A stretch of 64,000 bases of DNA from Alloascoidea hylecoeti (Eukaryota): NCBI GenBank assembly GCA_001600815.1, contig BCKZ01000001.1:540613-604612 (forward strand), given 5' to 3'. Below the pieces are notes generated by a model that saw nothing but the letters and a program-made list of their open reading frames with translations, was not told the origin of the DNA and made no database searches. Numbering within the stretch: the first letter of the stretch is position 1; every line of letters starts with the position of its first letter. The position numbers and the translations under genes are program-made. Of the stretch, positions 16,884 to 55,800 are shown piece after piece.

Positions 16884-17002
16884 GTTATTGCCACCCGATA
16901 ATTGTGAATGAGAAAAATGTACACAAAGAATTAGGATATGGGAAAATTTAAATACGCTATAAATCCTTCGTTGTCAGACACACAATCACTGCCCGCGCGG
17001 GC

Positions 17003-17009
17003 CACGTGA
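17003..17009. promoter_or_regulatory. CACGTGA bHLH (Cbf1-like) site in the 172-bp divergent RVS167/transporter promoter
   Basis: GCCCGCGCGGGCCACGTGA followed by TATATAT about 35 bp before the ATG at 17056. Confidence 0.45.
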
Positions 17010-17055
17010 TGCTGGGATTATATATGCATAAGACAAGACGTAATGAATAATTGCA

Positions 17056-33647: not shown

Positions 33648-33992
33648 TTATAAACCATTTTTCAATTTCATAGCTAAACCTAATAATTCAACAGCTTCTA
33701 AACCATTTTTTGAACGTCTTGTATTATGAGTACGAACAGGACTAGAAAGATATTTTGAAGAAATATTGTTGATATTATTTGTTGTTGAATAAGAATAATT
33801 TTGTTGTTGTGGATAAATTGAATTATTTGTAGATGTATTTGTATTTGTAAGAGATGATAAAGAATAAGAATTCATCATTGATTGATTACCAATTGATCTA
33901 GATCTTGTATAATTTGAATTTCCAGTACCATTTCCATAAGTTGGTGAAATTGGATCAAAATAAGTATAATTGGAATTCATTAAACCATTTGA

Positions 33993-34034
<42 letters not shown>

Positions 34035-34820
34035 TGAAGAATTTAAATTGTTTGATAATGAAGAATATGAATAATTTCTTGGATATTGATAATGTGAAGA
34101 AGTATTTGAATATTTCAAAAAGTTAGAGTTTGATCTATGGATATTATTAAATGGTGAATTATCGCTATCACTAATATTAATATTGCTATTATTATATTTA
34201 TAATTGTTATAAGGGGAGTTAGAAGTAGAGGAAGAGAAAGAATTTGCAGGTTGAAATTGAGTAAAAGAATTATTAGAAATATTATATTTAAAAGGATTTT
34301 CTTGTGACCAAGCCAAAGGAGATGGTTTTGATTTTTTAGATTTTCGAGATTGATATTGAGATTGAGATTGCGATTGAGATTTTAATGGTTTCATTTTATT
34401 CATCCAAGGATTATGAATTTTAAAGATTTGTTTATAAGAATTTGAATCCTCATACTGTGTTGATAAAAAAGCGATATCAGAGGCTGTGATAGCTGGGGAA
34501 GATAGTTTAATGAATTCCTCCGTTGTTATACCGACTAGATTCAATACTTGGTCGAGGTCATCGGAAGAATTTGAGTTTGAAGAGTCTGAAGAGTCTGAAG
34601 AGTCTGAGGGTAAGGAATCAAAGCTCAAGAGAAGGAGGACGGAGGGAGTGAGGCCATATAAAGAGGTGGTTGAGTCGACCAGAGGATTGGGGACGGGAGG
34701 TTTCATTTGGTCAGAATGGGAGGAGGCACGTGAAGGAGAGTGGTTTGAGGGATCCCTCTGGCGGTTTGGGTGACGTCTCTTTGTTTTCTTCTTGTGCGCG
34801 TTCAGGTCTCTCGGGGGCAT
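33648..34820 (-). CDS. Hypothetical Ser/Asn/Tyr-rich low-complexity protein (390 aa)
   Basis: Long ORF through very AT-rich DNA. Basic N-terminus (HKKKTKRRH), a poly-Asn tract from (AAT)n, and a TATAAAA box about 40 bp upstream on the minus strand. Confidence 0.7.
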
Positions 34821-34945
34821 TTTGGGAGGGTGGGAGAAAAGAGGAGGGAGGAAAGCGCAGTTTTATACACCACGGTAACGGGGGATGCTGGAGGGGATAC
34901 CGTGGGAATGGGGGGATGGGATGGGCTGCCGACGGTGGTTGCAAC

Positions 34946-35617
34946 TCACAGCTCATTTCTCGAGCGCAGCACTCTGTCGGCCAACCCCAGCTCCACGGCC
35001 CGGTCCGCGTCCAGAAAAGAGTCTCTGTCCAGCAGCCTGTCCAGTTGCGGCGCAGAGATGTCCGCGTTGGTGGCTTCCATGTGGTGCAGGTACAGCTGGG
35101 TGATCTTGGCCCGTGTTTTGGCCATGTGCTCCGCGTGGATGGCGACGTCGCTGGCACTCCCGCTGAACCCCCCGCTCGGCTGGTGCACCATGACAACACT
35201 GTTCCGCAGCACCAGACGCTCCCCTGGCTCCCCCCCACACAGCAGCAGCGACCCCATGGAGCACGCCTGGCCCAGGCACACCGTGCTGATCGGACAGCCC
35301 ACGTACTGCATGGTGTCGTAGATCGCCAACCCGCTGGTCACGCTCCCCCCGGGGCTGTTGATGTACATGTAGACCTTGGCCCGGGACTGGGCCTCCAAGT
35401 ACAGCAGCTGTGCCGTAACAATCCCCGCGGTCTGGTCGTCTATGGGCCCGTACACGCAGATAATCCGTTCTTTCAGCAGCCGGGAAAAGATGTCGTATCC
35501 TCCCTGTCCTTCCGACACAATTGGAAGCCCAATCCTTCTGCTGGCCGACTGAGAAAACCCCCTTCGCACCCCCATGTTCGCCGTTTTCTTCACAAGCCCG
35601 AAAGTCTTCATCATCAT
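34946..35617 (-). CDS. CLPP: ATP-dependent Clp protease proteolytic subunit, mitochondrial
   Basis: DIFSRLLKERII, YINSPGGSVTSGLAIYDTMQ, and an intact Ser-His-Asp triad (GQACSMGS, HQPSGG, LDRDSFL). Arg-rich, acid-free presequence. No introns. Confidence 0.95.
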   Translation of the reverse strand: MMMKTFGLVKKTANMGVRRGFSQSASRRIGLPIVSEGQGGYDIFSRLLKERIICVYGPIDDQTAGIVTAQLLYLEAQSRAKVYMYINSPGGSVTSGLAIYDTMQYVGCPISTVCLGQACSMGSLLLCGGEPGERLVLRNSVVMVHQPSGGFSGSASDVAIHAEHMAKTRAKITQLYLHHMEATNADISAPQLDRLLDRDSFLDADRAVELGLADRVLRSRNEL

Positions 35618-35659
35618 CTATGGTCTAGCAGTTGTCCGTCAATGCTTAAGACTACTACT

Positions 35660-35754
35660 GTCAAGGGTCAAGTGTCAAGTGTCAAGTGTCAAGTGTCAAA
35701 AGTCAGGAGTCAAGAGCCAAGACCAAGACCAAGACCAAGACTCAAGACTCAAGA
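35660..35754. repeat. Compound 6-7 bp minisatellite in the divergent CLPP/DJP1 promoter
   Basis: GTCAAGG, (GTCAAGT)4, GTCAAAA, GTCAGGA, GTCAAGA, GCCAAGA, (CCAAGA)3, (CTCAAGA)2. Confidence 0.9.
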
Positions 35755-35873
35755 GTAGGGAGTGTCTGGGTGTTTGTTTGCCTTTGTGTCTGAACATTTG
35801 AATAATCGAAACCTCCAATATTTCAATCCTCGAACCCGCCACTTTTCCATTAACTCCAACATCATATCTAAAA

Positions 35874-37645
35874 ATGGCGGTTGATACGGCTTATTATGAT
35901 TTACTACTAGTCTCCCCTACTGCAACTCCACTGGAAATCAAAAAATCTTATAGAAAATTGGCTGTGAAGCATCATCCCGATAAAAACCCGGATGATCCAA
36001 AAGCTAGTGAGAGGTTCCAAGAGGTATGTATTCAAACTCGGTTTGTCATTTTTTGTTTCATGTTAAATCTTTACTAACAAATAATTCAATAATTTTAGAT
36101 TGGTGAAGCTTATCAAGGTAACTAAAACTGACTATTTACATGATTTTATACTAGTCATTTATAATTAACTTTTTTCACCCTTTATATTCATAGTCCTAAG
36201 CGATCCTGAACTTCGTAAAAGATATGATCAATATGGTAAAGATCAAGCTGTTCCAAGCGCTGGCTTTGGTAAGTTATTCTTAATGGTTAAACTTGTTATA
36301 TTTATGAATGCTAATAATCTTTTAGAGGACCCAGTAGAATTTTTCTCAATGATCTTTGGTGGTTCAGCTTTTAAAGATTTGTAAGTTTATTTCTAACTAT
36401 TGATGAATCAAGAATAAAATACTAACTGATATGATATTATATTATATTATATTATAAAGAATCGGTGAATTATCATTTTTGAAAGAATTAACACGTACTG
36501 CTGAACTATCTGAAATAAATCAAGATAAAACTGAATCCACATCTGAAAATTCTAATAATTCCAATGATTCTAATGATTCACCATCAAATTCACATCAATC
36601 AAATACAAATACAAATATAAATTCATCTTCAAATTTATTATTAGAACACGGTTCTTCAACAACAGATGCAAATCAAGTTGATAAATCAAAAGAAAATAAT
36701 AAAAATAAAAATGGTTTAACCCCTGAACAAGAAGAAAAAATTGCAAAATATGAAGAAGAAACAAGATTAGCAAGAAAAGAAAGAATTGAAACATTATCAT
36801 CAAATTTAATTTCAAAAGTTTCTTTATATACTGAAACTGATAAACAAAAAGATGTTATATATTCTTTTAAATCAAAAATTAAAATTGAATCTGAATCTTT
36901 AAAAATGGAATCTTTTGGTTTAGAAATTTTACATACAATTGGTAAAATTTATATATCAAAAGGTGAAACATTAATTAAAAAACAAAAATTTTTAGGTATC
37001 CCTGGTTTTTTCAGTGCTTTAAAAGAAAAAGGTACACTTGTTGCTGATACTTTTAAAACTATTAGTAGTGCTATGGATGCTCAAGCTTCTTTACAACAAA
37101 TTGCAAAGATACAAGAAGATAATTTAACTAAACAACAAAGGAAAGAAGAAAAAGAACAAGCTAAATCTTCAGAATCTTCAGAGTCTTCAGAATCTTCAAA
37201 ATCTTCAAAATCTACTGAAAAAGATAAATCTACAAACAATACTATAGATACAAAAGAGAATGACAAGAAAGTAGAAGAAGATGATGATGATATATTAAGT
37301 CCTGAAGAGCTAGCTAATTTAGAAAGAACAATGATTGGTAAGGTCTTATCAGCCGCATGGCATGCTTCAAAATATGAAATTCAAGGTGTATTAAGAGAAG
37401 TTTGTGATACCATTTTATATGATCCAAAAACACCATTAGTTAAAAGATTAGAAAGAGCAAATGCTTTAATTATAATGGGTGAAATTTTCATAAAAGCTGA
37501 AAGAACTGAAGAAGAAGATGAAGAAGCAAGAGTTTTTGAAGAATTGGTTGCAGAAGCAACTACAAAACAAGCAAAAAATCATACTAAAAAAGAGAAAGAA
37601 GAATTATCAACAAAAGAAGTTCCTACAACTTCAACTTCAACTTAG
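35874..37645 (+). CDS. DJP1: J-domain protein with DnaJ-X domain (Djp1/Caj1 family); join(35874..36023,36099..36117,36194..36268,36326..36380,36460..37645)
   Basis: HPD motif. The spliced product [24 protein letters not shown]...[27 protein letters not shown] is continuous, and [15 protein letters not shown] is present. Djp1 versus Caj1 orthology is not resolvable by eye. Confidence 0.9.
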
Positions 37646-39120
37646 CCTTCATCTCATTAATTAATTTATATTTTTTTATAAATTTGTCTATGATAGTAAT
37701 TTTGTTTGTTTGTTTGTTTTTTCTTTCCTGTCTCTTTTGTTTAGAATTGGTTGTTACTGTCGAATTTTTTTTTGACTGTTTAAATTTAGTATGCAAATAT
37801 AATATATATTTTGTTCTATTTTCAAGTTACCTATTTAAGTTTAAACTTGGAATAATTACTTATACCTATACGTATACGTCTAGGTAGAATGTTTGATTTA
37901 CTGGTTTATATCGTTTTTTAATTCAATGCATAGAAAAAATACTTAGAATTATAAATGGAAATACATATCATCTAGACTTACCTACGACGTCTTTTAACTT
38001 TCTTAGTTTTTTGCCTACGATTAATTTCATTATCGATAATTTTATAAGCATCTTTAGGACGTAAATGGTTATCAATACATGTATGTATGTTCAAAAGTTT
38101 CTACAGTTGATTTTGGTATACTTAAGCTTCCAAACTTAATATGCATATGCATCAACCATACATGAAAGTTAAACCAATTTGTACAACCTTCAAGAAAACG
38201 ACATCTTTCCCTAATCGGGTCTTCTCCCCATTTTTCAATGCGAATCGTTGGAATTGCAACTTCGATATTAGGGTCAGTTGTCATTTTATCATCTTCACTT
38301 GAACTTAAATATTTTAATCTAAAGAAAAATTCATATCCGCACTGCTGGATACATCAGAGAATGTTCAGTTACTAGAATCGGATACATTTGATCTTGATTC
38401 GTTTGAATCATTATCTTCATTGATATTAATATTAAATACATCGCTATCAACTATCTGATATACAGTGTATAGCCGTTGACCATAAGAAGAAGATCCACTG
38501 AAATTTGGACATCCCCATACATTATTCGCGAATTCTGTCTTCCTCATTATAATCAACATTTGGAAAAGCAAGATAATCCTCTGGAGCCTATGAGTCTTCA
38601 ATTAATAATATTTTTTTTTTTTAAAATGGCCATTAAGGCTCTATATTAAACTGCTTTTTCTATAAATACTATATTTATAACAACCAAGAAATTGTGAAAA
38701 TAAAATGACCTATTGCTAGGCAAAAATACCTATTACTAATGTTATAGGTTCACTCTTTTTTGAATAATGTTGTTACATTTTATAGTATTATTGCCACCAT
38801 TTCCAACATTATCTTTGTTATTATAATAAATAATGATGATGAGAAAAATACTGAAATATTTTTTTGACATTAATATTTCTTGTAGTTTCCGGATACGATA
38901 TCACTGTCCATAATTATAAGGCCTTATAAAATTTTTTTAAAATATGTAGCAAACAAGTGTAGAACATTAAGATTAGTAACATGGTTGCTCATATTTTCAC
39001 TATTTACTCTAGAGTCTATAGAGTCTAGACTTTATACCCATTTCAATAACTGGCTCATGTTATCTTAAGTCTTTCAATGAGGAGGAAAAAGAGAACTGTC
39101 AAAAAAATAGAAAAAGAAAT

Positions 39121-39192
39121 TGCCGTTGCCCAGAATCGAACTGAGGTTTCATCGGCCACAACGATGTGTACTCACCACTATACTACAACGGC
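39121..39192 (-). tRNA. tRNA-His (anticodon GUG), intronless
   Basis: Minus strand reads GCCGTTGTAGTATAGTGGTGAGTACACATCGTTGTGGCCGATGAAACCTCAGTTCGATTCTGGGCAACGGCA: 7-bp acceptor stem, CATCG/CGATG anticodon stem, TTCGA T-loop, and a T-run terminator just downstream. Confidence 0.97.
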
Positions 39193-40132
39193 TTAATTTA
39201 TCACGTGTAATCCCACACAAATTTGTGAGCAAAATATTCATCCGATGGTGTCTCTTGCTCCCAGTTCCAATCAAGCCACCAAAGAGGATCTACAAAATGT
39301 ACACCCAGGATACTATCAATATCTGATGATCATGACTCAAAATATACTTCTTAAACTTTGGTGATATACACCCAGAACGCGTAAACCTCTTTTTTTTTTA
39401 CTTTATTCAAAAATATCTCATCGAAACCTTAATCAAACATTCAAAAATATAAATGCTGACTACGAATATCAAGTCTATATGGTCAGAGCGGGTCATACCT
39501 ATGCCGAAACTGGTTTTGTAATGAAGCCACATATAATTTTCAGTAATTTCTATAGTTGGTGATTCTAATGCTCCGATATCTGCACTTAAGCTTTATCACT
39601 GTATTACAAATGTTGTCAAAAAGGTTCCATCATTCCCGTAGAATTCAACCGAGTTCCTAGGTTTCACTTAAAGAATTGTATATTAGTCCAAAGCAATGTT
39701 GATGATTGCAAATGGTAAATTTATCAAGCGATGCTGTGGTATTCTAGTTGTTCTCAATTAAAAAGGATAGAGATATAGAGTAAACAATTGACATTTCTGC
39801 AGCCTTTCTCTTATTATTTAAACGTATGAAAGAGTATATTTGAAAGAGATACTGATAAAAGGAAGATTAATATTTCTCCTTGGATACACATTTTCATTAT
39901 GTCTGAATGAATAAATTTAGCATCTAGATCTAATTATAATCATGTTAGATATTCCTCAATATTCATTAGCGCTGCACTATGTGGCCCAAAGAGGAAATAG
40001 TAGGCTGAACGCCTTATTACCCTGCCGAGGTAAACTTTTTTTATGAAAAACACTAACTTCACGTGATTATTAAATAGGGATTGTGACACTTTTGCAAAAT
40101 ACTTTACTTTATAATTACCAAATAAGATTAAA

Positions 40133-41704
40133 ATGGACAGTGAAGCAGACAAAATCGCTGCGCCCTTGAGCTCGTTATGGCTCAGCACGCCAAGAGTGAA
40201 AGACGTGAAACCGGCGAACCAAGTATTTGAGGTGAAAGTCGAAAACCTGCCGTTGGACATGACCCAGCGCGAGTTTCAGTTGGTATTCTCGTTGGCCTCG
40301 CAACTAATCGACACCAAGTTACAAAAGCCCTCCACCGTGGATCAAAATGGTCAATTTAACGGATCGCGTCCGGGCTCGGCCCACCCCAACCCCCCAGCCG
40401 GCCTCACTGGTGTCGCCAGGTTCTCCTCGTTGATCGACGCCTCCCATGCCCAGTCCTTGCTGGATGGAAGAACTTTGCTACCTGAGTCCTCTCCCGTCAA
40501 GGCTGAACTCTTCTACCAACACCCCGGTTCGGCCCCCATTTTCCCCCCGTTGAACTCCACACAGACACAAACCTCCAAGTTCCCTCCTTTCAACGACCCC
40601 TTCTCCAGCTCGGCCCATCCTCATTCGCAGGCACCTCCTGCCCCCTCGGATTTCGCCTTCGACCAGAAGCATAATTATTCGGGAAAGCACCTTCTGCAGC
40701 TGGAGTCGACTGGCGAGGAAGACTGGTTCCCTCGCCACTCTCAGGACTTGATGCAACAGCTAGGACCATCGCATCAACCCCAATCGTCGGTGAGCAATGT
40801 TCTTTGGGATAAAAGAAACTTAAGGCAAGGGTCTTATCCACCTTATAATCAACCCGCTAGACCCATATCGATGATTGACTCTCAAATAAACAATAATCCT
40901 GGCGCCAGTAACAAGTCTCAACCCAATACACAGGTGAATAATTTCATCTTACCTCTTTTAAACCCTGCTGATCAAAACCCTCCCTGTAACACTCTCTATG
41001 TTGGTAATATTCCACAGCAAACCGTGGAAGAGGAGCTAAAGGAGCTGTTTTCTACCCGGGAAGGTTACAAGAGACTCAGTTTTAAGAACAAGGGTAATGG
41101 AAATGGTCCCATGTGCTTTGTTGAGTTTGAATCTGTCGAGTACGCCACTAACGCCTTAAATGAGTTATATGGGAGAACTTTGGTCCACAGTGTTAAAGGT
41201 GGCATTCGACTTAGCTTCTCAAAGAATCCTCTTGGTGTTAGAAGCAATCATAATCAAAAACATGCTATAGCTAATCATCCTTCAATTCAGACTCATCATC
41301 CACAAATCCCTGCAGGTGCAGCTCCCATCAATGATGAAAGACCTAATCTGCAGTTGTTTAAACATGAATCTTTTTCTGGAATTCCATATAACAATCATGT
41401 ACAAGCTCAAATCCCTCATTCATTTCAAAATAATTCTTATCCAGCAATTCCATCACAATCATTTCAAAATATGAACAATCCTCCAATTGTAACTGAAAAT
41501 ATTACTAATACCCAACAAATGCTATCCTCTATGCCATTGTCTCCAACTGATGATCCTAATAGTTCTACTTCTAGAAATCCATTTGGACTTAACCCCCAAA
41601 GTATGGGCAATGGTAATATTAATGGTAATGGTAATAGTAATTCGCAATTGAATAGTACTAAAATTTTTAATGGCAATGAGCATATGTCACAAGACAGATT
41701 TTAG
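40133..41704 (+). CDS. WHI3: Whi3/Whi4-family RRM RNA-binding protein
   Basis: [18 protein letters not shown]...GYKRLSF...GPMCFVEFE...[26 protein letters not shown]. Degenerate N-terminal RRM ([20 protein letters not shown]) and Q/N/P-rich regions. Confidence 0.88.
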
Positions 41705-43146
41705 TCAGTTTCTTCATTCGCATATGCATATGCATTTGATTGCATTTTCATTTTCAGCTTCATATTATTTCATTTGAATCTTTTCCTAATTTCATAATAC
41801 TAATATGTTCATTTATTATTATTTTTGATCTTGGAAGGTATGTACACTAAACTGAACAAACTCTAATACTCATTTATTGTATCATCATTGGTTTTTCTAT
41901 TATTATTTTTACTAAAAATGATAACTTCATGGATATTTTATTTGAGAATTTGAACGACATTTAAATTGTTTTATTATTTTTTTTTTCTTTGTTTGATAAT
42001 ATCAAGACTTGTAACGTTATTATTATTATTATTATCTTATTGTTTACCCTAGTATTTTATTAAAACTAAACTACCCTATAGCTATATCTTTATACCACCT
42101 TTTATTAATTTATTTGTCTTTTATTTTTTCTTCCCCAAAAACACATGAAGTGAATTATACGATTTTATTCACCGTATCTTATTATTAATCTTTTTTTCCC
42201 TTCTATTTCTGTGTTATAATTATATTATGTTAATAATATCTAACCATTAATATTGATACTTTTTCCTCAATGATTTGATTTTTTTTCTGGTTATTAATGA
42301 TAATTAAATTTTTATAATATTATGTTTCGATTTGCTACAAATATTTGAATTGCAAAACATTTATTCAGTAGCTCAAGATCATCAATTTTTGATTGAGCTA
42401 ATGACATGTAGATCAGCAATCAACCAGTAGTACTATAAGGCCTTCTATGGTTTAATGTGATGAGATATGGAAATCGTAGCATAGCTTCTTATAGAAATTC
42501 TACACTTATTCTACGGTTGTAAAGAGGCCTACAAGGCATGAAGTTGAGCTGGTGTTCCGTATTAATATGTCCAAGCAATTGAAAGGAAGTTAATAATTAG
42601 TTTGCAATAAACCCTCCGGAATATCAATTTTTTAAATTTTACTTTTTGTGACACACACCTATATATTTTAATCGAATTTATATACTGTATAGATTAATTT
42701 CAATTATAAACATTCTTTAAATTTTAAATATAAATATATAAAGTGCACGGTTTCAATATACATTTAATTATGATATTTGATTATTATACGGTCAATGTCG
42801 GCCATTCTAATTACCAAATTTTGGCTGACACATATACTAGCGCTGGATTTAGCAAGCATAGCAAGCTTTTTAAGCAAGTAGGTATTTCCAGTAAAATGCT
42901 CCACCGTCCTCCGCAACGTGGTCGTATAGTCGTACCCAGTGCTTGTGATATTCCCGATTGCTAGCAAAAGTGTGTAATCTGGAGTAATCGTGAGGAGTTC
43001 TCAAAACAGCAAAGAATATATATGTATTACGCTCTAATCGGATAAAGTAGTCTTCCACCTTCCATCTTTTGGTCGACCCATTCCTTTGGTAATGGTATCT
43101 TTCGTAATTGTGGTCAACAAAGGGTTAAACCTGCTGAATCTATTAA

Positions 43147-44160
43147 ATGAATTCCCTTTCTAATATTCCAAATAAATATAAAAATGCTAGAAATTCACTT
43201 CTTAAATGTTATTCAATCCACAGGTCAATACAAATGTCTGCAGCTGGCAATTATTTGGCCTCTAATAATTCCTCTAATGGCATTAGAGATTCTCTTAAAA
43301 AATCAAAAAAAGAGATTTACATTGAAAAAATAAATATTCTCTCAAATGAGGTTCAGGAAATGAGGTCAATGTTATCTCGTTTAGTCTTTTCAATGTCTTT
43401 TCAATTGAGTCTGCAGCTGAATAATTCACACATGAATGGGGGTGAATTTACATCTACATCTTGTAAATTACCAACTAATGATGATATTAACGTTCAGGTA
43501 AACAACAATAATGACGAGGCAGTAAATTTAGATCAAGTTTTCATGGTTAGTTATGGTACTAAAGATGATAAACCACAATCATGCATTGATTTAGAAGAAA
43601 CACCTTTCGCGATTTCACCGTCAACAGACATAAATGAGATTCAATCTCAATCTCAATTTCCTATCGATGTCAATATTAGTACTGATGATACAAATTCAAA
43701 ACTAGGTAGAGTTAAAATGTCAGATTCCTCTAAATTCCCTATTGAAGATAATAAATCTTCTGTAGCAATTACTAATAGCGAAGCGGATTTAAATTTAAAC
43801 GATTCTGCTTCAATTGTAACATCTGGTGAAGATAATAAATCACCAAGAGCTAACAATGTATCAAATGTTTCTTCTCAAACTTTCAGTTACAGTGTATACA
43901 ACAAATCTCTATCTATAATTGAGGATCCTGAGGTAGAGATAGAATCTAAAGATTCAAATATTACACATTCTGCTTTAAATGAAACTTCGGTAAATGGTGA
44001 AGATAAAAAGGACCTTCACTTACCCATAGTTACAAAAAATCAAACCTTTAGTATTAATATTAGAATGCTTTTCCTGTTAGCTCGCACATTATATCATCGA
44101 ATTACAATACATTTTATACATGTTTATAAATTTTTGAGACCTGGAATAAAAAATGTTTGA
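43147..44160 (+). CDS. Orphan 337-aa Ser/Asn/Asp-rich ORF with a short predicted coiled coil; may start at ATG 43234
   Basis: A 1-kb ORF in AT-rich DNA is unlikely by chance. No recognisable family. Confidence 0.5.
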   Translation: MNSLSNIPNKYKNARNSLLKCYSIHRSIQMSAAGNYLASNNSSNGIRDSLKKSKKEIYIEKINILSNEVQEMRSMLSRLVFSMSFQLSLQLNNSHMNGGEFTSTSCKLPTNDDINVQVNNNNDEAVNLDQVFMVSYGTKDDKPQSCIDLEETPFAISPSTDINEIQSQSQFPIDVNISTDDTNSKLGRVKMSDSSKFPIEDNKSSVAITNSEADLNLNDSASIVTSGEDNKSPRANNVSNVSSQTFSYSVYNKSLSIIEDPEVEIESKDSNITHSALNETSVNGEDKKDLHLPIVTKNQTFSINIRMLFLLARTLYHRITIHFIHVYKFLRPGIKNV

Positions 44161-44747
44161 AATTGGGATAAATATTTTTATAATCATAATCATACATATA
44201 AATTATAATCATAGACTACGTGTAAGTAGCGAGGCTCAAGAATCATCTTCAATAACAGTACTTTATGCTATTAACATCTTTATGTGAAGTTAAATGATTA
44301 TTGAGGAGGAGTTGATATCAAATCCTATTTTGTCTGATTGACCATGGGTGAAGATGCAATGTTAGCAGTTTATAACACGGGATCCTTGACTCAAAACTTC
44401 TATCTAACATGCTGGTTCTTTTTGGTATAAAGCTAACAGTGTTATGCAGGATGGCATCATTCTGTTCTAGAGATGAAGGATGATAATCTGAATCTCCTCC
44501 TCATTTCAAAAAAACAGATATCGCGGATCCTTACAATTAACTCTCTCACATTATAAATACTACAAATATTGACTCTTTTTGATTTTATATACATGTATAA
44601 CTTTATCTATAATTGTACATATATCCAATTAAATATATTTACCAAAAATTAAACTAAATAACTCAAAAATCTTAACAAAAAATCGAACGGTAAGTAAACT
44701 GTAAAGTAAAATGATATTAAAATGAACACGTAAATGTATATGACAAT

Positions 44748-44820
44748 AATAGTAATAGTAATAGTAATAGTAATAGTAGTAATATTAATAATAGTTGATA
44801 ATAGTTGATAATAGTTGCTA
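44748..44820. repeat. (AATAGT)n and (AATAGTTGAT)n simple repeats just downstream of the 1971-aa gene
   Basis: Read directly from the sequence. Confidence 0.8.
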
Positions 44821-44836
44821 ATAATATTTCAGCCTC

Positions 44837-47800
44837 TTATGAATACATCATTTTATTTAGTCCCACAGCTAAAGTTAACCCTAATGTCAGTTGCCAAATA
44901 CCCTTCTTTTGCAGTTCTTTTTTGCAATCATAAATAGTTATCCAACCTAGTTTATCATCACTAGGTGCATCATCTTTTGGATCTGTAATCATCATACCAT
45001 CACCTGGCTGAAAATAATGAACTTCTTCCGATTTCTTATCTTTGATGAAACTTTTAAAACTATTTAAGCTGGATGATGAGCTACGTCTTTTTGGAGTTAA
45101 GATCTCATCTATTTGATTTTCTTCAAAGAAAGAATCAGTTCTTGAATGTCGTCGTCTTTTAACATCCTTTACTAATTTCTTTTTCATTCTTGTTTCTCTT
45201 GGTCTGAATAAACCTAGAATTACACCACTCGAATCATTTGTTGGTTCGAAAAAATAAACGTTTGATTTTTTGATTACCTTTCCTCGGCGTTTGGAAATTT
45301 TAGGGATAGATCCAATAATCCATTGTTTCCCAGTAAAATCTCTTACTTGATATCTTTCAAGACTATATTGAGCAGATGAATCAATGGCTGTACTAATAGG
45401 TGCACCAAATTTAGTAGCTTTTGTAACCCAAGGTTGACTTTTTGTAATTCTACTAAAAGGTTGTTCTTGATCAAATGTATAAATATTTCTAGTTTTAGCA
45501 ACTTCAAAATCGAATAAATCATCATCATCATATTCTGGCTCATCAATCATTTCAACTATAAAAAGATCAGAATCTTGAACTGGATCACTTTTTTTAATAA
45601 TTTGCATAACAGGTTTACTATCAGATTGTTGAATAAATAATAATTTAAAACCATGTCTAGTTTCATTACTTGAATAAGTTTCAACTTGAACACAATATCC
45701 AGGACCAGGACGACAATATAAATGTTGTTGACCAGGATTTGTTGATAAAAATAAATCTTTACCAAGAGTCATAATATGATACTTCCAAAAGTTTTGTTCA
45801 TGATAAATATTTTGTGATGAAATAGAAGCAGCAGTATTTGAACTTTTACGAGTTCTGGTTTTTGAATTTGATCGAAATGATAAACTTGCACTTCTTCTTA
45901 AACTATCATATCTTTTCTTTAATGTATCAGTTTTTGCAATTTTTGTAGTACCAGCTTGAGCTCCATTATCCATTACAGCTAATGTATCATCATTTTTTAA
46001 ACCAAAATAACTGTGTCTATCTCTTCCTCTTCCAGATTGCTCGGTTGCTTTAACACTATCAATACTTCTAAATGAAAAATCCCTAGCTGATGAATCTAAA
46101 CTTCTTCTTGGTTGTGATATCTTTGGAGTTTCAGACATTGAAGCTGGTGAAAAAGCAACATCCTTTGGAAATTTCATTGTATTGAAACTTTCATATTGAA
46201 TGGGTTGTTGGGATTCAGAAGGTCTTACCCTTCTATCATTAGATTTTACGGTAGTCGTAGCTGCTGCAGCCGGTGGTGGGGAAGGTGGGGGCTGCTCTGG
46301 TTGCTGTGGAAGTATTATTTGAAGGCTCTTCCTTTTATCCTCTTGCTGTTGTTGTTGTTGCCTTTCCTGTCGTTTAACTTTATCGTATAATGAACCTTTT
46401 GATTCCAAAGTCTTCAATAAAGGAGATTCAGATTCAGAATCCTCATAATTAAAATCTGAATCAGATTCAGATAATGATTCTCCAGGAACATCCGCACCTT
46501 TATATATAACACTACCTCGTCTATGAATAACAGACCCATCAGTTGAAACGCAACTTTTTAAGGTTCTAGCTAATAATTCATCTGTGGAACAATGTCGTGG
46601 TGGGTGATGAACAACAGTATCATTTCTCTCTAGCTCTGCAGAAAGATTAATATTTGGAAGAGAAGGTTGATTATTATTCTTATTGAGATTAACGTTTGAC
46701 GTTGTATCCCATGATGGGAAATCAATTCTAGAAGGAGATGAACTTTTTTGCTTTAAAATAAGATGATTTTTTGGTGGAGATTGACGTAATTTTCTACTTC
46801 TTAATGGTTGTAATGGTTTAACAGGAGAATCAAATGTTGGCTGATCTTGCATCATAACTTGTCTTGGAGGAGGTGTAGAAGGTGATAGTGATGAAGAGTT
46901 TGAAGAAGATCCTGGAAATTCAACCAAACCATTACCTGGAATTGGAGAATCATTATCACCAAGTGCTTCAACTAAAACTTCTGACATTAATCTTTTTGCA
47001 CTTGCAAGACCATTTTGAATTGCTTCATTATCTGTTGTGTTTGATTTTGGTACAAGAAACTCCCTTGATGTTGACGGATATATAAATTGTGCAGGAGATT
47101 CAGTTAATCTAATTAACGAATCTGATGAGTTTGGAGTAGATACAATTTTTGATGGTGTATTACGAATAGGAGTTGGAGCATATAAATGAGGAGAAGATTT
47201 ATCAGGTAATTTACCTTTAGTTTTAGCAGGTGATATTTCCCTACCAGCTGGTTGATATAATAATGATGAATCATCATCAGTATCAAATGATAGAGAACTA
47301 GCGACAAAACTTGAACTTGAACCTTCATCAACAGTAACTTCTGTCATTTGAGATTGTTGTAATACATCTGCAGTTAATGATTCACCCAAAATATCAGGAT
47401 ATTGAATAGTTGCTTGTTTAACAGTTCCAAAACTACGATTCACGGTTTGAGATTCATCAAAATTATTATTATTATCTGGAGGAGTCAATTTTGGTGGTGA
47501 TTTATTTTTCTCTTTATATCTAAGTTTTGTATAATGTTGATCAAAATTTGAATCCACTGGTGATGTTTTCTTTAATTTTTCAGCCAATTTATCTAAATTA
47601 GTTTTACTATTATTTGCTGAAGGATATGGTTGTAGAACTAATCTATTATCACCATTTGAATTATCATTATTAGCAATACCTGAAGTTGAATTTAAATGAA
47701 GGGTTGCTTTCATATTATTAACAAAACTAACTGTTGAATCATTAATTATTTTAAGTGGTGATGATGAACGTTTTGGTGATGGTGATCTATTTCTATCTTT

Positions 47801-48893
47801 ATTTTTTTCAGGGGATCTTGATCTTCTAAATGGTGAACCGTTTCTAAAAGGTGAACCATTTCTGAAAGGTGATAAATTTCTAAAAGGTGATCGTGATCTT
47901 TTAGATGACGATTGAGGAGGGTTTTCTTGTTCTTGCTGTTGATCAAAATTTCGATCTTTACTTCTACTTCTACTTCTTTCAATAGAGCTTCTATTACCTT
48001 CATATTCTGGTGGGATTAAAGGAACAGTAGGTGGTAATGTTTTTGCTTTATTTTTTTTAAACCATGAAAATCTTTTCTTTTTCTTTTGAGATCCTTGTTC
48101 TTGGGATGAAGTATCATAATCATCTTCTAAAGTTTGAGGATTTGAAGTTGAAGGAGTAGTAGTAGTTGCAGGTGTAACTGTAGATCCAGTGGCAACTCTT
48201 GTAAGAGCTCTATCAAGGGGTGGACTAGGACTATGACTAGGTGTATATGTAGGACTTTGAGAATCTTGATCTCTTTCTTCTTCTTCTCTTTTCTTTTCAT
48301 TTTCTTTAGCAGTTAATTGTTTTTGTCTTTCTTCTTGTAATACACGTTCATTTTCTCTTAATTGTTTTTCATTTTCTTCTTCTTTTTGTTTTTGAAGAAA
48401 CAAAGCTTGTTGTTCACGTTTACGTTCCTGACGTTTTAAATCTTCTTGTTGTTGAAGTTGTTTTTGATTATGCATTTCTTCATCTTTCCATTTAATTTTT
48501 TGATTTCTTTGAATTTCTTCTTCTTTTTCAGATTCTGAATGATTATCAACATTATTATTCATATTCATATTATTATTATAAATTTCATCATCAGAATTTT
48601 GATTTTGATTTTGATATAAAATTTTTTTATCTTTATCTCTTTTCATTTGTTGTTCTTTTTCAAATTCTAAATTTCTTTTATTATCTTCAGCAATTTTTTC
48701 TCTTTCTTTTTGTTCATAATCTTGTTTTTTCATTTCTTTTAAATTTTGTTTTAATTTTAAATCTTTTTGTTTTTGTAATTCAACTTCTTCTTTTGGTCCA
48801 ATTGTTATTGTTAAACTTGGTAAACGAAATTTACTTATTGCTTCAATTATACTTTTTGATTTTCTATGACTTTTTTTAATTTTTTTAGATTTT

Positions 48894-48925
<32 letters not shown>

Positions 48926-49428
48926 GTTGTTGTTGTTGTTGTTAATGTTATTATTATTAGAATATAAAAGTTGTGGTGATGGACTTTTACCATTTAAAGT
49001 TGAATCTGAATTTGAAGTTGAATCTAAATTTTTAAAAACTGGTGGTTTATCTAAATCAGAACTCATATTCATAGGTAATGGAGAATCAGTTGGTTGTTGT
49101 TTTAAAATTCCCTTTGGCATAACTTTTGCAGGTGTATTTGTATTTGTATTTGTATTTGGACTTGCAATTGTATTTAAATTAACTTCTTTATTACTATCAG
49201 ATTGTTCAAGTTGTGATTGTTTATCATCATCTGGATTAGGAAATCTTAATTTTTTATTATTTCTCATTATTGGTGGTTTAGGTGCTGGATAAGTAGGAGC
49301 TTTTAATTCTAAACTTTTTCTTGGGTCAACTGGACCTAATTCAATTTCATTACCATTTTTATCAAATGTTGTTAAATTTGAGTAACGTTTACCTTTATTG
49401 TTGTTATTATTATCATCAATATTAGTAC

Positions 49429-49462
<34 letters not shown>

Positions 49463-50752
49463 GTTACTGGTAGTTGAATTTCTATTTAAATTTAATTTTG
49501 GTAATGGTGGTACATTAGGTCCATATTCATATTTATTCATCCTACTTGGAGAAACGTTATAATCAATATTCGCTACTGAACGATCTCGAGAATGTGAAGG
49601 CATGAATTGTTGTTGTTGATTATTATTATTAATATTATTGTTTTTGTTTGAACTAGAAGGATTTTCGAAATTATCTGGACTAGGGGATGTTTCGTTATAC
49701 GGTAAATGAAAAGCAGTAGGTGGTGATTGAGAATCATTCCGTTGGTTAGTATTATTTATTACGTCTTGTGTCCTAGGAAATGCAAAATTAGGTGAGGTTT
49801 CCAGGTCAACATTATTTGTATTTGGTATACTCTGTGTATCAGTTTCATCATCTTGTTCTTCAGTATCATAATCTTCACCATAATTAATTTCATCTTCAAT
49901 ATGATCATCAGGTACAATGGGGTTAAGGTTTGAATTGGAAGTATAATTTTGATCAAAGTTTAAAGAATGTTTATTGTTTGGAGATGGAATTTGAATTGAT
50001 ATTGGAGATCTTGAAGGTGATCTTGAAATTGAATAATAATCAGTTGCAGCAGTTGCAGTTGAAGTTGAAGAAGGTTTTTTAATTACTCTTGATGAAACAT
50101 AATTATTATCAGAATAAGGAGCATCTTGGGTTATATTTGAATTATAACTAATTGGAGATTGATGTTTAAAAGAAGATAAAGATTGAATAGAATTTTTTTT
50201 TGTTTTAGATTTAGTCGAATTTAAATCGTTTGGTATGGGAGGTTGAGGTAAAGGTTTATTAACATCACTAGATCTTCTTCTATGATGGGTTCTATCATTT
50301 AATTTTTTAGGACCAATAATTACACTTTGATCAGTATATTGAGAGGTAGTGGTTGAAGAAGAATTATTATTGAGACGTCTATATTCTTCAGATGGCCAAA
50401 ATATTTGCTGTTGAGAACCTCCTTTTGATCTTGAAGATGAAACACGTCGCTTATCCTTTTTTTTCTTATTCTTCGATATATTATGAACTCTTAGATCCGA
50501 ATGATTATCATCCCACTCCTTTTCACTGTTCAGTTGTTGCTGTACGGCCATTTCTCTTTCGACCTGTTCAGGATTAATGGTTATAAATTGATATTCGTTT
50601 TCATCAAAGTCGTCGTTTATGGTATGGGCTTTCTGGGGGGCTCTTGAAGACACGGCAGGCGCACCATACCGACGGGGACGGATGCGGGAGGTCAGGTCAG
50701 CATCGGTCGGAGAAGTGTCCTGGACGACAGAGAACCTGGATTCATAGTTCAT
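44837..50752 (-). CDS. Very large (1971 aa), mostly disordered N/Q/S/P-rich protein with a central charged coiled coil and an apparently globular C-terminal domain
   Basis: 5.9-kb uninterrupted ORF. The last ~315 aa (FWKYHIMTLGKDLFLSTNPG...KLGWITIYD...LTLGLTLAVG) have folded-domain composition. Confidence 0.85.
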
Positions 50753-51015
50753 TCTGTTCTTTGCTGAAGTGATAAGTAGTATACGGTGGTAAAAGTGCTG
50801 AATAAATGTAAATATTAATGTAAATGTACTGTTCCAGCCTCGTTATTAATGCCATTTCCTGGTTGCCAGGCGGCACAGCGCAGAGATGCAGAATGCATGT
50901 GTATACAATTACTACATGGAGCAGCATGCAGCAGCATGCAGCAGCCAAACACCCGTCCATTTGCATTGTTGGTTTAACTTCTATTTTCACGGAATTTGTT
51001 TGCTCACTAATATTC

Positions 51016-52703
51016 ATGGCTGACTCTTTGTTTGTTACGGGTGTTGAGGATGCTGTTAGAGACTCAGTCTCGCAGTCAAAGCCTCTGATAGTGTACATCA
51101 CAGGTATGCACTTCACATAACAATACTACTAGCTAGTTACTAACATCAATAATTAGACAACACGTCAAGTTCAAATGAATGGGGAAACAATCATTTTTCA
51201 AATAGTCATCTTCTTGAACTATTATCTGAAAATTCAATCTGTTTGAAATTAATTTCATCAACTAAAGAGTTTGATTTTTTTAAACAATTATTCCCTTCAA
51301 CAAATACTCCAAGTGTTTTCATCATATCAAATGGTCAAGTTTTAGATTTAATTTTTGGTGATATTTCAAAAAACGAATTTGTTGAACGTTTAGATAAAGC
51401 ATTAAAAATTGATGTTAAAAAAGAATTGGAAAAATTACGATTAAAAGAGATTAAAAATGATGATAATTCAAATTCCGGATCTGAGGCTGGTAGTAGTAGT
51501 ATTGTTCAAGCAGATGATGCTCAAACTAGCAATGTCCAAACTAGTGAAGATCCAATACCTCAAGAGCCATTACAATCACAATCAGCGTCTCAGGAAACAA
51601 ATGTAAATGTTAGTTCAATTGCGAATTCGCATGATCAACCCTCCTCGGGTTCCCCGGCACCTACACCTACACCTACACCTACACCTACACCTAAATCTAA
51701 ATCTAAATCTAAACCTACAACACATAAAACATTAAAAGAACAAGCAGCAGAAGCATCAGCACAGAGATATAATGAAGAATTAAAAAAGAAAAAACAACAA
51801 GAGATTGATGAAAGAAAACGAATTTTACGATTGTTAGAATCAGATAAAGAAGAAAGAAAATCAAGATTTGAGAAACATAGAGATGAAAATTCCAATCGAA
51901 ATCAAATCACCAGGAATCACCAAAATCGAAATGTAAGTGAAAATAAGAATAAAAAAGCCAAACCAAACTATGATGAATGTTCACTTGTTATTAGATTATT
52001 AGATGGATCTACTATCAGGAATACATTCAAGGCATCGGATACACTACTTGATATACGCAAATGGGTTGATGATAATAGAACAGATGGCACCAAGCCATAT
52101 GTGTTCCATAGAACCATACCGCGAACAACGTTTGGAATTGTCGATGAAGAAGAGAGTCTGCAGCAGCTCTCGCTGACACCGCGATCAGCGCTGGTCTTGA
52201 AAAGAGCCGGCAGCAGGAATGGGGTTGGGTCGGAGGCAGTTGGGGCTTACGAGCAGAGTGCTGGCGGGTGGGTGTGGGGGATGGTCAGATCCGCCGCCGG
52301 GGCCGTTGCAGGGGTTTTCTACAAGCAGGAGAGCAGTCCGTCGGTGGACGAGTTCCACACCGAGGAGTTCTACAACCGTTTCCGGGAGGAGGTGGAGTCC
52401 GAGGGGGCCGGGGGGGCCGGGGAGACGTCGAAGAAAGGGAAAGGCAAGGAGAAGGACGGCGGCCATCACCTGTCACACAACAAAGAGAAAAACAGCCCGG
52501 TTGTGTCCGGGGCCACGACGCCCATCTACTCCGTTCTGAACGACGACGAGCCGATACCGGCGCTGGGGCTGAGCATCCCGAGCAGCGAGGAGCTGGGGCG
52601 GATCAGGACGCTCCGGGACAGGGACGCGGCGGACGCAGGACAGGACGACGACCGGCTCACGTACAACGGCAACACCGTTAATTTGGAGGACGACAAGAAG
52701 TAG
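51016..52703 (+). CDS. UBX7: UBX-domain Cdc48 cofactor (Ubx7/Ubx6, UBXN4-like); join(51016..51103,51157..52703)
   Basis: N-terminal thioredoxin-like region, ERKRILRLLESDKEERK coil, UBX domain (CSLVIRLLDGSTIRNTF...LTPRSALVLK) and a YNGNTVNLE tail. Intron GTATGC(51104)..TACTAAC..TAG(51156). Confidence 0.85.
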
Positions 52704-52834
52704 CTTAGCAAAACAGGGCGCGTGATTGGCTGGAGATAGTCCCCGCTGCCGTCACGTGCGCGCCCGGGTATAGAAAAGACATTAATTTTTCCTCTTTCAA
52801 GATCAATCGTCGAATTCGAATCGCTTATCGAAAA
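52704..52834 (+). promoter_or_regulatory. Compact 131-bp UBX7-GLT1 spacer with a reverse CCAAT box, GTCACGTG and a TATA-like element
   Basis: ATTGG at 52725-52729, GTCACGTG at 52751-52758, TATAGAA at 52769. Confidence 0.55.
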
Positions 52835-55800
52835 ATGAGTGCCAGTACTACCGATCTTGATGGTGCCCCGTATTCCTACGACGAGACCCCCGAAAACACG
52901 TCCTGGGCCCACGCTCTGCCCGTCAAACAGGGCTTGTATGATCCAGAGTACGAGAAGGATGCCTGTGGAGTCGGCTTCTCCTGTCACATCAAAGGAACTG
53001 TCTCCCACAAAATCGTCTCCGATGCTAGATATTTGCTATGTAACATGACTCACCGAGGTGCCGTGGGGTCCGATGCCAGGGACGGTGATGGTGCCGGCGT
53101 GATGACTTCAATCCCCCATCTGTTCATGAAAAAAGAGTTTGAAAGGGAAATTGACTTTAAACTACCCCCATTGGGCCAATATGCCGTTGGCAATATCTTT
53201 TTCAAAAATGATAATGACGTCTTAAATCAATCCCGTATAACTTTTGAACAAATCGCCAAAAGTTTAGATTTAAGAGTTTTAGGTTGGAGATATGTGCCAA
53301 GGGACTCCTCAATCCTAGGTCCTGCGGCCTTATCTAGAGAACCCTTGATCTTACAACCAATTGTCGTTTTGGAAGCAAGTTATGGTAACTCTAATTCTCC
53401 CATAGAATCCTATAGCGATGAACAATTTGAAGAAAAATTTGAAAAATTATTTGAGAGACAATTATATATTTTAAGAAAACAATCAACCCACACAATTGGC
53501 CTACATAATTGGTTTTATATTTGTTCTTTATCAAATAAAAATATCGTTTATAAAGGTCAATTAGTACCTGCTCAAGTTTATAATTATTATTTTGATTTAA
53601 ATAATGTTGATTATGAAGCCCATTTTGCTTTAGTTCATTCAAGATTTTCAACAAATACTTTCCCATCTTGGGATAGAGCTCAACCTTTACGTTGGGCTGC
53701 TCATAATGGAGAAATTAATACTTTACGTGGGAATAAAAATTGGATGAGAGCACGTGAAGGTGTCATGAGTTCAAAACTATTTGGTGATGAATTAGATAAA
53801 TTATATCCAATTATTGAAGAAGGTGGGTCTGATTCTGCTGCTTTTGATAATATTTTAGAATTATTGGTAATTAATGGTGTTTTATCAATGCCTGAAGCAA
53901 TCATGTTATTGGTTCCTGAAGCATGGCAAAATAATCCAAATATGGATCCTAAAAAAAGAGCTTTTTATGAATGGGCTGCTTGTTTGATGGAACCATGGGA
54001 TGGTCCTGCTTTATTCACTTTTGCTGATGGTAGATATTGTGGTGCAAATTTAGATCGAAATGGCTTACGCCCATGTCGTTATTATGTAACTGATGATGAT
54101 CGAATGATTTGTGGGTCCGAAGTTGGTGTTATTCATATTGAACCTGATAAAATTATTAAAAAAGGTAGATTAAGACCTGGTAGAATGTTACTTGTTGATA
54201 CAAAAGAAGGTAGAATCGTTGATGATAGAGAATTAAAACAAAAAGTTTCAAAAAGATTTGATTTTAAAACTTGGAGTGCTGGTAATTTAATTACAATGGA
54301 TGAATTATTTAAAAAATTAAATTCAAGAGGTTTATCAAAAGAATCTTTGAATCCAATTTTAAAATTTAATACTATTCAATCTGATCCAAGATTAATTGCT
54401 TTTAGTTATTCTTTTGAAGAATTATCTTTATTATTAGTTCCAATGGGTACTGATGGTAAAGAAGCTTTAGGTTCAATGGGTAATGATGGTCCTTTAGCTT
54501 GTCTTGCTGAACAACCTCGTTTAATTTATGATTATTTTAGACAATTATTTGCTCAAGTTACAAATCCTCCAATTGATCCAATTAGAGAAAGTATTGTAAT
54601 GTCTTTAGAATGTTATATTGGTCCCCAAGGTAATTTATTAGAAATGAAACCAACTCAATGTAATCGTTTATTATTACCATCTCCTGTTTTATCAATGCAA
54701 GAATTTAATGCAATTAATAATATTTCAACTGTTTATCCAACTTGGACAATTACAACAATTGATATTACTTTTGAAAAAACTGAAGGTTTAAAAGGTTATA
54801 CAAATGCTTTAAATAGAATATGTCAAGAAGCAAGTCAAGCAATTATTGATGAAAGAAAAATTATCATATTATCTGATAGAAACACTGATTTAAATCATAT
54901 ACCCGTTTCTGCTTTAATTGCTTCTGGTGCTGTTCATCATCATTTAGTAAGACAAAAACAAAGATCTAAAGTTGCAATTATTGTTGAAACTGCTGAAGCA
55001 AAAGAAGTTCATCATATTTGTGTATTGGTTGGTTATGGTGCTGATGCTATAAATCCTTATTTAGCTTTGGAAACTTTAATTCAAATGAATCATGAAGGAT
55101 TAATTAAAAAAAAAATTTCAAATGATGAAATTGTTGATAATTATAAACATTCTGTTGATGGTGGTATATTAAAAGTAATGTCAAAAATGGGTATTTCAAC
55201 TTTAGCTTCTTATAAAGGTGCTCAAATATTTGAAGCTTTAGGTATTGATAATAGTGTTATTGATCGTTGTTTTGCTGGTACTGCTTCAAGAATTAAAGGT
55301 ATTACTTTTGAATATATTGCTCAAGATGCTTTTAGTATGCATGAACGTGGATTCCCAACTCGTGAAACTATTAAACCAATTGGTTTACCTGAAACTGGTG
55401 AATATCATTGGAGAGATGGCGGTGATCCTCATGTTAATGAACCAAGTGCAATTGCAAATATGCAAGATGCTGTAAGGAATAAGAATGAAAAAGCTTATGA
55501 TGCATATTCTAAAAAAGAATATGAAGCAATTAAAAATTGTACTTTACGTGGTTTATTAGATTTTAATTTTGAAGATTCAAAACCTGTACCAATTGAACAA
55601 GTTGAACCATGGACTGAAATTGTTAGAAGATTTGTTACTGGTGCAATGTCTTATGGTTCAATTTCAATGGAAGCTCATTCAACTTTAGCTGTTGCAATGA
55701 ATAGATTAGGTGGTAAATCAAATACAGGTGAAGGTGGTGAAGATCCAGAACGTTCTTATGTTAATGAAGATGGTGATACAATGAGATCTGCAATTAAACA

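Follow-up and report, generated by a model that had tools for sequence, protein, structure and literature searches.

This work describes four short GC-rich islands in a 64,000-nucleotide stretch of the genome of Alloascoidea hylecoeti (GenBank assembly GCA_001600815.1, contig BCKZ01000001.1, positions 540,613 to 604,612 of the forward strand). The stretch as a whole is called the window, and all positions below follow its own numbering. The window is nuclear DNA of a budding yeast, with an overall GC content of 34.1% (200-bp windows: mean 0.341, standard deviation 0.078) and short introns that carry GTATGT...TACTAAC signals. The genes that Pfam matches name are UBA2, a RhoGAP gene, an RVS167-like BAR/SH3 protein, a sugar transporter, MUS81, an MTR10-like importin, ClpP, a DnaJ/DnaJ-X protein, an RRM protein, UBX7, GLT1, HSM3 and MTR4. 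The islands run across the borders of several of these genes and lie within a 26-kb trough (33000-59200) of GC content at third codon positions (GC3).

GC islands and the genes they cross

Islands were called where the GC fraction of a 200-bp window was at least 0.47. The stretches that pass are 34551-35750 (maximum 0.68), 40151-40850 (0.615), 50501-50800 (0.52) and 52051-53200 (0.66), here islands 1, 2, 4 and 3, together with weak ones at 16951-17400 (0.495), 4101-4350, 12201-12400 and 15501-15750. Islands 1 to 3 are each about 1 kb long and peak at 61-68% GC in a window of 34% GC. The highest 200-bp value observed was 0.685, against 0.515 in 100 first-order Markov simulations of the window, and 2097 window positions are higher in GC than any of these simulations. 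We also applied a rule used for recombination hotspots in dogs, which recognizes a 'GC peak' where a 500-bp window has at least 1.5 times the GC content of its 10-kb background (PMC4053742). It selects 34451-35840 (1.94x), 40041-41090 (1.78x) and 51921-53150 (1.91x), but not the 50.86-kb (1.36x) or the 17.2-kb (1.33x) peak.

A preliminary description of this DNA had reported sharp GC peaks beside AT-rich troughs, and the 200-bp windows and the simulations bear this out. Its eight hand counts of 60-mers are exact (38, 41, 39 and 44 of 60 in peaks; 7, 9, 12 and 11 of 60 in troughs), and its impression that the first 32 kb are more uniform holds as well, with a standard deviation of 200-bp GC of 0.055 there vs 0.102 in 33-59 kb. 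The peak it placed at 50.6-50.75 kb is present but weak, and extends over a divergent promoter to about 51.1 kb. Within the window each island matches itself alone, so that no copies of a repeat or mobile element were found among them.

Island 1 (34551-35750; GC3 0.74, GC at four-fold degenerate sites 0.75) spans the 5' end of an Asn-rich open reading frame (ORF; 33648-34820, minus strand, 390 amino acids, no Pfam family), a 128-bp spacer (34821-34948, 59% GC), an entire ClpP gene (34946-35617, minus strand, 223 amino acids; Pfam CLP_protease, E = 2e-64) and part of the divergent promoter between ClpP and the DnaJ gene (35618-35865, 44% GC). ClpP, a whole small gene that the preliminary description had left unnamed, has a GC3 of 0.82 overall, and one of its 40-codon windows reaches 98%. 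The 5' end of the Asn-rich gene has a GC3 of 0.60, and in the DnaJ gene GC3 fades away from the island through 0.33, 0.20, 0.17 and 0.05 down to 0.00-0.07. The DnaJ/DnaJ-X gene (35874-37645, plus strand; Pfam DnaJ-X) has an intact spliced ORF of five exons (35874-36023, 36099-36117, 36194-36268, 36326-36380 and 36460-37645, including the stop). The interiors of its introns have a GC content of 18.7% (n=251) vs a GC3 of 17-20% in the adjoining exons, a match that a regional neutral process predicts. The four introns are short (57-79 bp) and fall within the first 590 bp, which makes the gene intron-rich for a budding yeast locus. Tandem repeats occur at both edges of the island, with 7-mer and 6-mer units at 35655-35750 in the ClpP/DnaJ promoter and a 9-mer unit at 34575-34605 in the Asn-rich gene.

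Island 2 (40151-40850; GC3 0.64, four-fold GC 0.66) coincides with the first ~240 codons of a WHI3-like RRM gene (40133-41704, plus strand, 523 amino acids) and begins at its start codon. RRM_1 is the sole Pfam match of the protein; the name WHI3 is the label given in the preliminary description, and orthology is putative.

The weak island 4 (50501-51100) straddles the divergent promoter between a low-complexity ORF of 1971 amino acids (44837-50752, minus strand, no Pfam family), which is GC-rich at its 5' end only, and UBX7 (51016-52703, plus strand; Pfam UBX and UBX7_N), and includes both 5' coding ends. Codons 1-60 of the 1971-aa gene have a GC3 of 0.53 and exon 1 of UBX7 has 0.48, compared with 0.08-0.17 just inside; the spacer (50753-51152) has 41% GC. 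The structure of UBX7 was read from the sequence with frames checked, giving exon 1 at 51016-51103, an intron at 51104-51156 and exon 2 at 51157-52703. The 53-bp intron stands behind a first exon of 29 codons, another feature of a locus with many introns for a budding yeast.

Island 3 (52051-53200) comprises the last ~200 codons of UBX7, which amount to the 3' third of the gene, the UBX7-GLT1 spacer (52701-52834, 134 bp, 48% GC, containing the GLT1 promoter) and the first ~120 codons of the glutamate synthase gene GLT1 (52835-59221, plus strand, 2128 amino acids, with Pfam matches). GC3 reaches 0.87-0.90 at the 3' end of UBX7, and falls in GLT1 from 0.63 and 0.50 at the 5' end to 0.09. The segment 52100-52703 of UBX7 encodes ~165 residues past the UBX domain that are rich in Gly, Ala, Arg and Asp and are encoded wholly by the island; this C-terminal tail may be a segment shaped by compositional drive.

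A fainter pattern of the same type occurs in the first 32 kb. One instance is the weak peak at 16951-17400, which covers the divergent promoter of the RVS167-like gene and the sugar transporter together with the 5' end of the transporter, where GC3 declines in the 5' to 3' direction from 0.48 through 0.40 to 0.20. The 3' end of UBA2 (0.42) and the 5' end of SAC7 (0.43) also have raised GC3.

The switch in composition takes place inside single ORFs, as the preliminary description had stated. In 40-codon steps, GC3 climbs from 10-20% to 75-90% toward the 3' end of UBX7, and drops in the 5' to 3' direction from 65% to 5% in GLT1, from 62-75% to 12-22% in the WHI3-like gene, from 62% to 2-10% in the 1971-aa gene and from 60% to 2-10% in the Asn-rich gene.

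Site classes, shape and placement

Four-fold degenerate sites have a GC content of 0.65-0.75 in the islands and of 0.04-0.10 in the rest of 33-59 kb; the flanking segments 1-32 kb and 59.4-64 kb have 0.26 and 0.21. Many 40-codon windows of the trough have a GC3 of 0-5%, and part of the trough is low-complexity coding sequence rich in Asn, Lys and Ser, with GC3 near 0-5%. The preliminary description had allowed that GC3 might turn out flat once amino-acid composition was controlled for. It does not: the contrast between islands and troughs persists family by family, with G/C-ending codons making up 52 of 71 Gly codons (GGC and GGG) vs 15 of 226, 56 of 69 Ala codons vs 15 of 228 and 43 of 58 Val codons vs 12 of 203. 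Other site classes follow. Spacers have a GC content of 0.41-0.59 within islands vs 0.27-0.33 elsewhere in 31.7-44.8 kb, and GC at first codon positions is 0.55-0.58 in islands vs 0.21-0.47 in troughs. Synonymous, non-synonymous and non-coding sites thus shift jointly, irrespective of gene borders or strand.

The frequencies of C (0.35) and G (0.36) at four-fold sites of the islands are equal, and there is therefore no transcription-strand signature. On the coding strand T exceeds A in genes of both orientations. Strand asymmetry of transcription or replication was accordingly set aside as uninformative about the islands, G being equal to C there and T exceeding A irrespective of orientation. 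The excess of T is strongest in GLT1 (53495-58234), where four-fold sites are 69% T and 27% A (0.69 vs 0.27), compared with about 50% T and 43% A in other trough genes; this hints at a preference for T-ending codons in GLT1 on top of the AT floor.

The shape of each island was analyzed by fitting third positions on the logit scale with an exponential or Gaussian peak and with the best block, each with four parameters. The negative log-likelihoods for exponential, Gaussian and block were 381, 376 and 399 for island 1 (centre 35260), 462, 460 and 466 for island 2 (centre 40420, constrained on one side only), 388, 388 and 392 for island 4 (centre 50820) and 458, 463 and 509 for island 3 (centre 52600-52615, which is 100-230 bp upstream of the GLT1 start). 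A graded shape is better than a block in all four islands, with log-likelihood gains of 17-23 (island 1), 4-6 (island 2), 4 (island 4) and 46-51 (island 3). Decay lengths L of the exponential were 300-1020 bp and Gaussian sigmas 230-605 bp, and from floor to peak the logit rises by about 5-7 in islands 1 and 3, by 2.4-3 in island 2 and by 3.4-4.4 in island 4. The islands are graded bells and not blocks, and they decay on the scale of conversion tracts.

Placement was tallied over the ten spacers between 31.7 and 61.2 kb, a spacer being called hot when the GC3 of 60 flanking codons was at least 0.48. Five of the seven promoter-containing spacers are hot vs none of the three convergent ones; Fisher's test is not significant, and the tally is suggestive of a preference for promoter-containing spacers over convergent ones. 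The preliminary description had the process sit at gene starts. This is true insofar as a promoter-containing spacer is common to the islands, but the strongest flank is the 3' end of UBX7, and one island covers a whole gene.

CACGTG boxes occur at 17003, 34727, 40060 and 52753, and also at 26073, 39202 and 53751. Four of these seven fall inside GC peaks or no more than ~100 bp away, and three of the four belong to promoter spacers. As a candidate hotspot motif CACGTG was rejected: the seven copies are not above chance (3.4 expected; 6 of 100 shuffles reach seven), and on a rough hand estimate composition may explain how close the boxes lie to the islands.

RNA genes were rejected as a cause of the peaks: a tRNA-His gene (39121-39192, minus strand), which lies outside the islands, is the only tRNA or other RNA gene found. 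It belongs to the largest spacer of the AT-rich trough (37643-40132), which also holds a short repeat at ~6-9x depth. This is a ~150-bp piece at ~38657-38807, recovered in all four sequencing runs considered below as short contigs at ~6-9x single-copy depth, and it interrupts contigs. A dispersed repeat is the probable explanation, perhaps a solo-LTR-like element (LTR, long terminal repeat) beside the tRNA gene.

Independent samples and the direction of change

The assembly was compared with four sequencing runs. Two of these (X1 and X2) are its likely source, one (X3) is a wood-decay metagenome and one (X4) derives from a second isolate; the latter two are independent of the source runs. The islands are present in all three independent samples. 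Metagenome contigs carry islands joined to AT-rich flanks at 34044-38656, 39143-40454, 40436-43964, 49534-51648 and 52403-53999, and the second and third of these together cross both borders of island 2. Contigs of the second isolate likewise join islands to AT-rich flanks. Its read depth is 2-5 in the islands vs 8-10 elsewhere and its contigs break there, dips that fit the ordinary GC bias of short reads. Mis-assembled or foreign sequence, which the preliminary description had proposed to look for, is thereby not what the islands are: contigs from both samples bridge the borders, the borders fall inside native conserved ORFs and ClpP is of fungal type.

Over the 20 kb from 34000 to 53999 the metagenome differs from the window at 47 places, of which 38 are listed and 37 were retained after the exclusion of one in a repeat. 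Of these 37, 13 fall in islands 1 and 3, which together account for 2.35 of the 20 kb. At these 13 the window has G/C and the metagenome A/T in 11 cases, the reverse holds in one and the remaining one is a G/C swap; all are unpolarised. The metagenome strain also lacks 7 bases at 35667. Two insertions occur both in it and in the second isolate, one of 9 bases at the UBX7 stop (behind 52700) and one of a single base behind 52762.

Where covered, the second isolate carries none of the listed metagenome variants in 34000-51531, and all six metagenome single-nucleotide polymorphisms (SNPs) and two indels in 51934-53827. It is thus window-like to the left and metagenome-like to the right of 51531-51934, an interval between islands 4 and 3, and this haplotype switch therefore marks a past recombination breakpoint. 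It shows that these strains have exchanged genetic material in nature; one such event puts no statistical weight on the position of any hotspot.

The direction of change was assessed at the protein level by comparing ClpP with the consensus of 20 fungal ClpPs, and residues 220-1800 of GLT1, which are encoded in the trough, with 22 yeast orthologues. In ClpP, 33 replacements relative to the consensus raise and 11 lower the GC content of first and second codon positions, whereas in the GLT1 trough 32 raise and 53 lower it (Fisher p = 8e-5 at a consensus threshold of 0.5, and 0.048 at 0.7). Residues 1-120 of GLT1 were dropped as a test of GC-ward change, being too conserved (one difference in 77 consensus columns). 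The ClpP replacements point toward the excess of AT-to-GC change at the peaks that the preliminary description anticipated; at the nucleotide level the three strains provide unpolarised differences. The 98% GC3 window of ClpP and its 33:11 replacements imply that GC in the islands is actively driven up and not just preserved.

The ClpP ORF is intact, and most of its top named matches come from fungi, at 54-60% identity, among them Kuraishia capsulata and Candida boidinii; plants, animals and Alphaproteobacteria supply some of the others. Saccharomyces cerevisiae is not known to have ClpP, and the Alloascoidea lineage therefore appears to keep a mitochondrial ClpP. The best protein-database matches of GLT1 reach 82% identity over 99% of the length and are scattered across several yeast orders, and the search with HSM3 returned itself and a single match at 32% identity. 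Searches of the protein database with ClpP, GLT1 and HSM3 found no close relative.

Probable GC-biased gene conversion and its rivals

[quoted passage not shown] We favour gBGC because the islands are indifferent to gene borders and strand, all site classes are shifted, the decay is graded, promoters adjoin and the protein change is GC-ward. The match between introns and exon GC3 beside island 1, the greater density of metagenome SNPs in islands 1 and 3 and the recombinant haplotype of the second isolate are also in its favour. Meiotic breaks would recur in the same spacers, and heteroduplex tracts with lengths between a few hundred bases and about 1 kb would enter the neighbours, that is gene 5' ends, a 3' end, or a whole small gene between two hot spacers. 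A slight preference of mismatch repair for G/C alleles would in the long term push unconstrained sites to GC and some amino-acid replacements GC-ward as well, while away from hotspots synonymous sites would sink to the mutational floor of about 4% GC. ClpP sits between two promoter-containing spacers 800 bp apart, and conversion from both would explain why the maximum falls at the middle of the gene.

The position-dependent process indifferent to gene boundaries that the preliminary description proposed is thus upheld by GC3 and four-fold sites, enriched spacers, bridging contigs and the native genes involved. Its exclusion of per-gene codon selection is sound, since spacers, a gene 3' end and amino-acid content shift as well; so is that of gene transfer, with islands that run through native conserved ORFs and a ClpP of fungal type. 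Of the two mechanisms it offered, gBGC fits the graded decay over 0.3-1 kb and the placement at promoter spacers, but protection from an AT-driving mutator is disfavoured.

In S. cerevisiae, promoters are preferred sites of meiotic breaks. A bird study reportedly describes stable, promoter-like hotspots (10.1101/023101). Marsolier-Kergoat (2011) reported for S. cerevisiae and Candida that GC3 decays roughly exponentially from gene ends, and attributed this to gBGC at intergenic meiotic breaks (PMC3020949). The present locus resembles those yeasts in that GC3 is highest at gene ends by spacers, both 5' and 3', and decays inward. It is unlike the published pattern, an average over many genes, in that GC3 at single loci here ranges from about 4% up to 75-98% over about 1 kb and the hot spacers are a subset. 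Conversion bias in S. cerevisiae has been ascribed to the repair of mismatches at crossovers (PMC3649680).

Dogs lack PRDM9 and have 'GC peaks' of ~1 kb at recombination hotspots (PMC4053742). The islands resemble them in their ~1 kb size, in their promoter-like regions and in the three that pass the 1.5x rule; unlike the peaks of dogs and birds, they belong to a fungus and are not vertebrate CpG islands, and their link to hotspots is putative.

At a larger scale, Lynch et al. (2010) described regional GC3 peaks and troughs on yeast chromosomes, with GC-poor troughs at centromeres (PMC2997560), and Cope and Shah (2022) described 'higher GC3' and 'lower GC3' gene regimes across Saccharomycotina (PMC9246145). 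As in these surveys, GC3 is here regional and gene-independent, and spacer GC varies much less than GC3. The surveys used sliding windows of 15-20 genes, whereas the islands are features of sub-gene size within a trough. The 26-kb trough itself is similar in width to the 36-48 kb troughs of C. lusitaniae (PMC2997560). It could represent a domain that is cold for recombination and separates strong hotspots, or a GC-poor trough of centromere type, which would be the only one on its chromosome and be centred on an unusually large spacer or a retroelement cluster.

Several observations weigh against gBGC as the cause. Conversion GC bias in S. cerevisiae is small and disputed (PMC9246145, citing tetrad work), and for the logit to shift by 5-7, population size, outcrossing rate and bias would have to multiply to a large value. 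Islands 2 and 4 hold none of the listed metagenome SNPs. Over the whole comparison, 28 differences have G/C in the window and A/T in the metagenome vs 11 in reverse, an asymmetry, albeit unpolarised, that a symmetric equilibrium model does not predict. Islands 1 and 2 are maximal inside coding sequence rather than in spacers, and the WHI3-like promoter upstream of island 2 has just 31-36% GC. Trough spacers have 27-33% GC vs 4% at four-fold sites, where agreement would be expected if both were neutral; yeast spacers are reported to vary far less than GC3s, with no explanation offered (PMC2997560). The contrast between promoter-containing and convergent spacers is based on just ten spacers, the ClpP and GLT1 tests rest on different orthologue sets, and one 64-kb window is the whole basis. 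Finally, that the centres are hotspots of double-strand breaks, that repair in this species is GC-biased and that the hotspots are old and stable are points we infer only.

The rival that survives best, although we think it unlikely, is locally GC-biased mutation, in which repair synthesis, either error-prone or biased, makes G/C directly at recurrent breaks, promoters or replication origins and without transmission bias. It likewise predicts position-dependent, strand-symmetric and graded peaks across gene borders, and SNPs and indels are indeed denser in islands 1 and 3. However, that 11 of the 13 island SNPs are A/T in one strain and G/C in the other fits AT-ward mutation (with the caveat that they are unpolarised), and no repair process is known that takes GC3 to 98%.

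A shade less likely is a GC-driving repair anchored at promoters or origins and independent of meiosis, for example biased mismatch or break repair at recurrent mitotic lesions, with the AT floor as its cold shadow. Selection for GC-rich DNA or RNA, acting through nucleosome positioning, promoter or origin function, mRNA structure or expression, ranks just behind it in our judgement. The islands adjoin promoters, and CACGTG boxes lie near four peaks, although their number (7 vs 3.4 expected) is not above chance. Against such selection, the effect is greatest at synonymous positions, as far as 600 bp into genes, it takes in the 3' third of UBX7, it alters amino-acid content, and the promoters are poorer in GC than the adjoining third codon positions.

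Local protection, in which an AT-driving mutator erodes the region save for short patches that keep the ancestral composition, is improbable. Strong AT pressure does exist, as seen in the four-fold GC of 0.04 in the background, but protection cannot exceed the ancestral GC, and ClpP has a GC3 of 0.82 with a 98% window and GC-ward replacements of 33:11. The four-fold GC of the bordering segments (0.21-0.26) moreover suggests a moderate and not a GC-rich start.

Foreign or introgressed patches, or an assembly chimera from a GC-rich genome, are largely refuted and highly improbable: ClpP, which S. cerevisiae is not known to have, does lie wholly inside island 1, and the depth of the second isolate does fall in the islands (2-5 vs 8-10), but contigs of two samples join islands to AT-rich flanks, the borders lie inside continuous conserved ORFs (GLT1 residues 1-120 differ at 1 of 77 columns), the ClpP matches are mostly fungal, the edges are graded and not stepped, the islands share no sequence, and neither hits, border type nor border position is that of a horizontally acquired island. 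Equally improbable is a CpG-island-like escape from cytosine methylation, or a background process like repeat-induced point mutation (RIP): CpG observed/expected is 0.82 in islands vs 0.50 in troughs, but trough CpG is low because nearly every third position is A/T, the loss of G/C there is not limited to CpG (four-fold C 0.048, G 0.024), TpA observed/expected is 0.77 and not raised, budding yeasts are not generally known to have cytosine methylation, and the composition is neither that of a vertebrate-type CpG island nor that of a RIP-type AT isochore.

The type of process is known; its amplitude here is extreme and unusual, and it occurs in a lineage that is unstudied and culturable. Our literature search found no budding-yeast report of kb-scale islands this strong; most subscription journals lay outside its scope, and it is no proof of absence. 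The signal in S. cerevisiae is faint, whereas four-fold sites here go from about 4% to 65-75% GC within a kilobase. Whether recombination raises GC or GC raises recombination in yeasts is still debated (PMC2997560, PMC9246145). This yeast has been isolated more than once and is present in a wood-decay metagenome, so that work with tetrads or Spo11-oligos looks feasible.

There is a practical warning as well. Short-read depth drops and contigs break in the islands, as in the second isolate, and such loci are easily lost from draft yeast assemblies. Per-gene measures of codon usage are also misleading here. Were the driving repair independent of meiosis, it would be a new, strong force that acts on base composition at specific sites. 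Should gBGC be the cause, the positions of recombination hotspots would be readable from one genome sequence. The gBGC-like pressure at this locus appears to reshape proteins too, as in the replacements of ClpP and perhaps the GARP-rich tail of UBX7.

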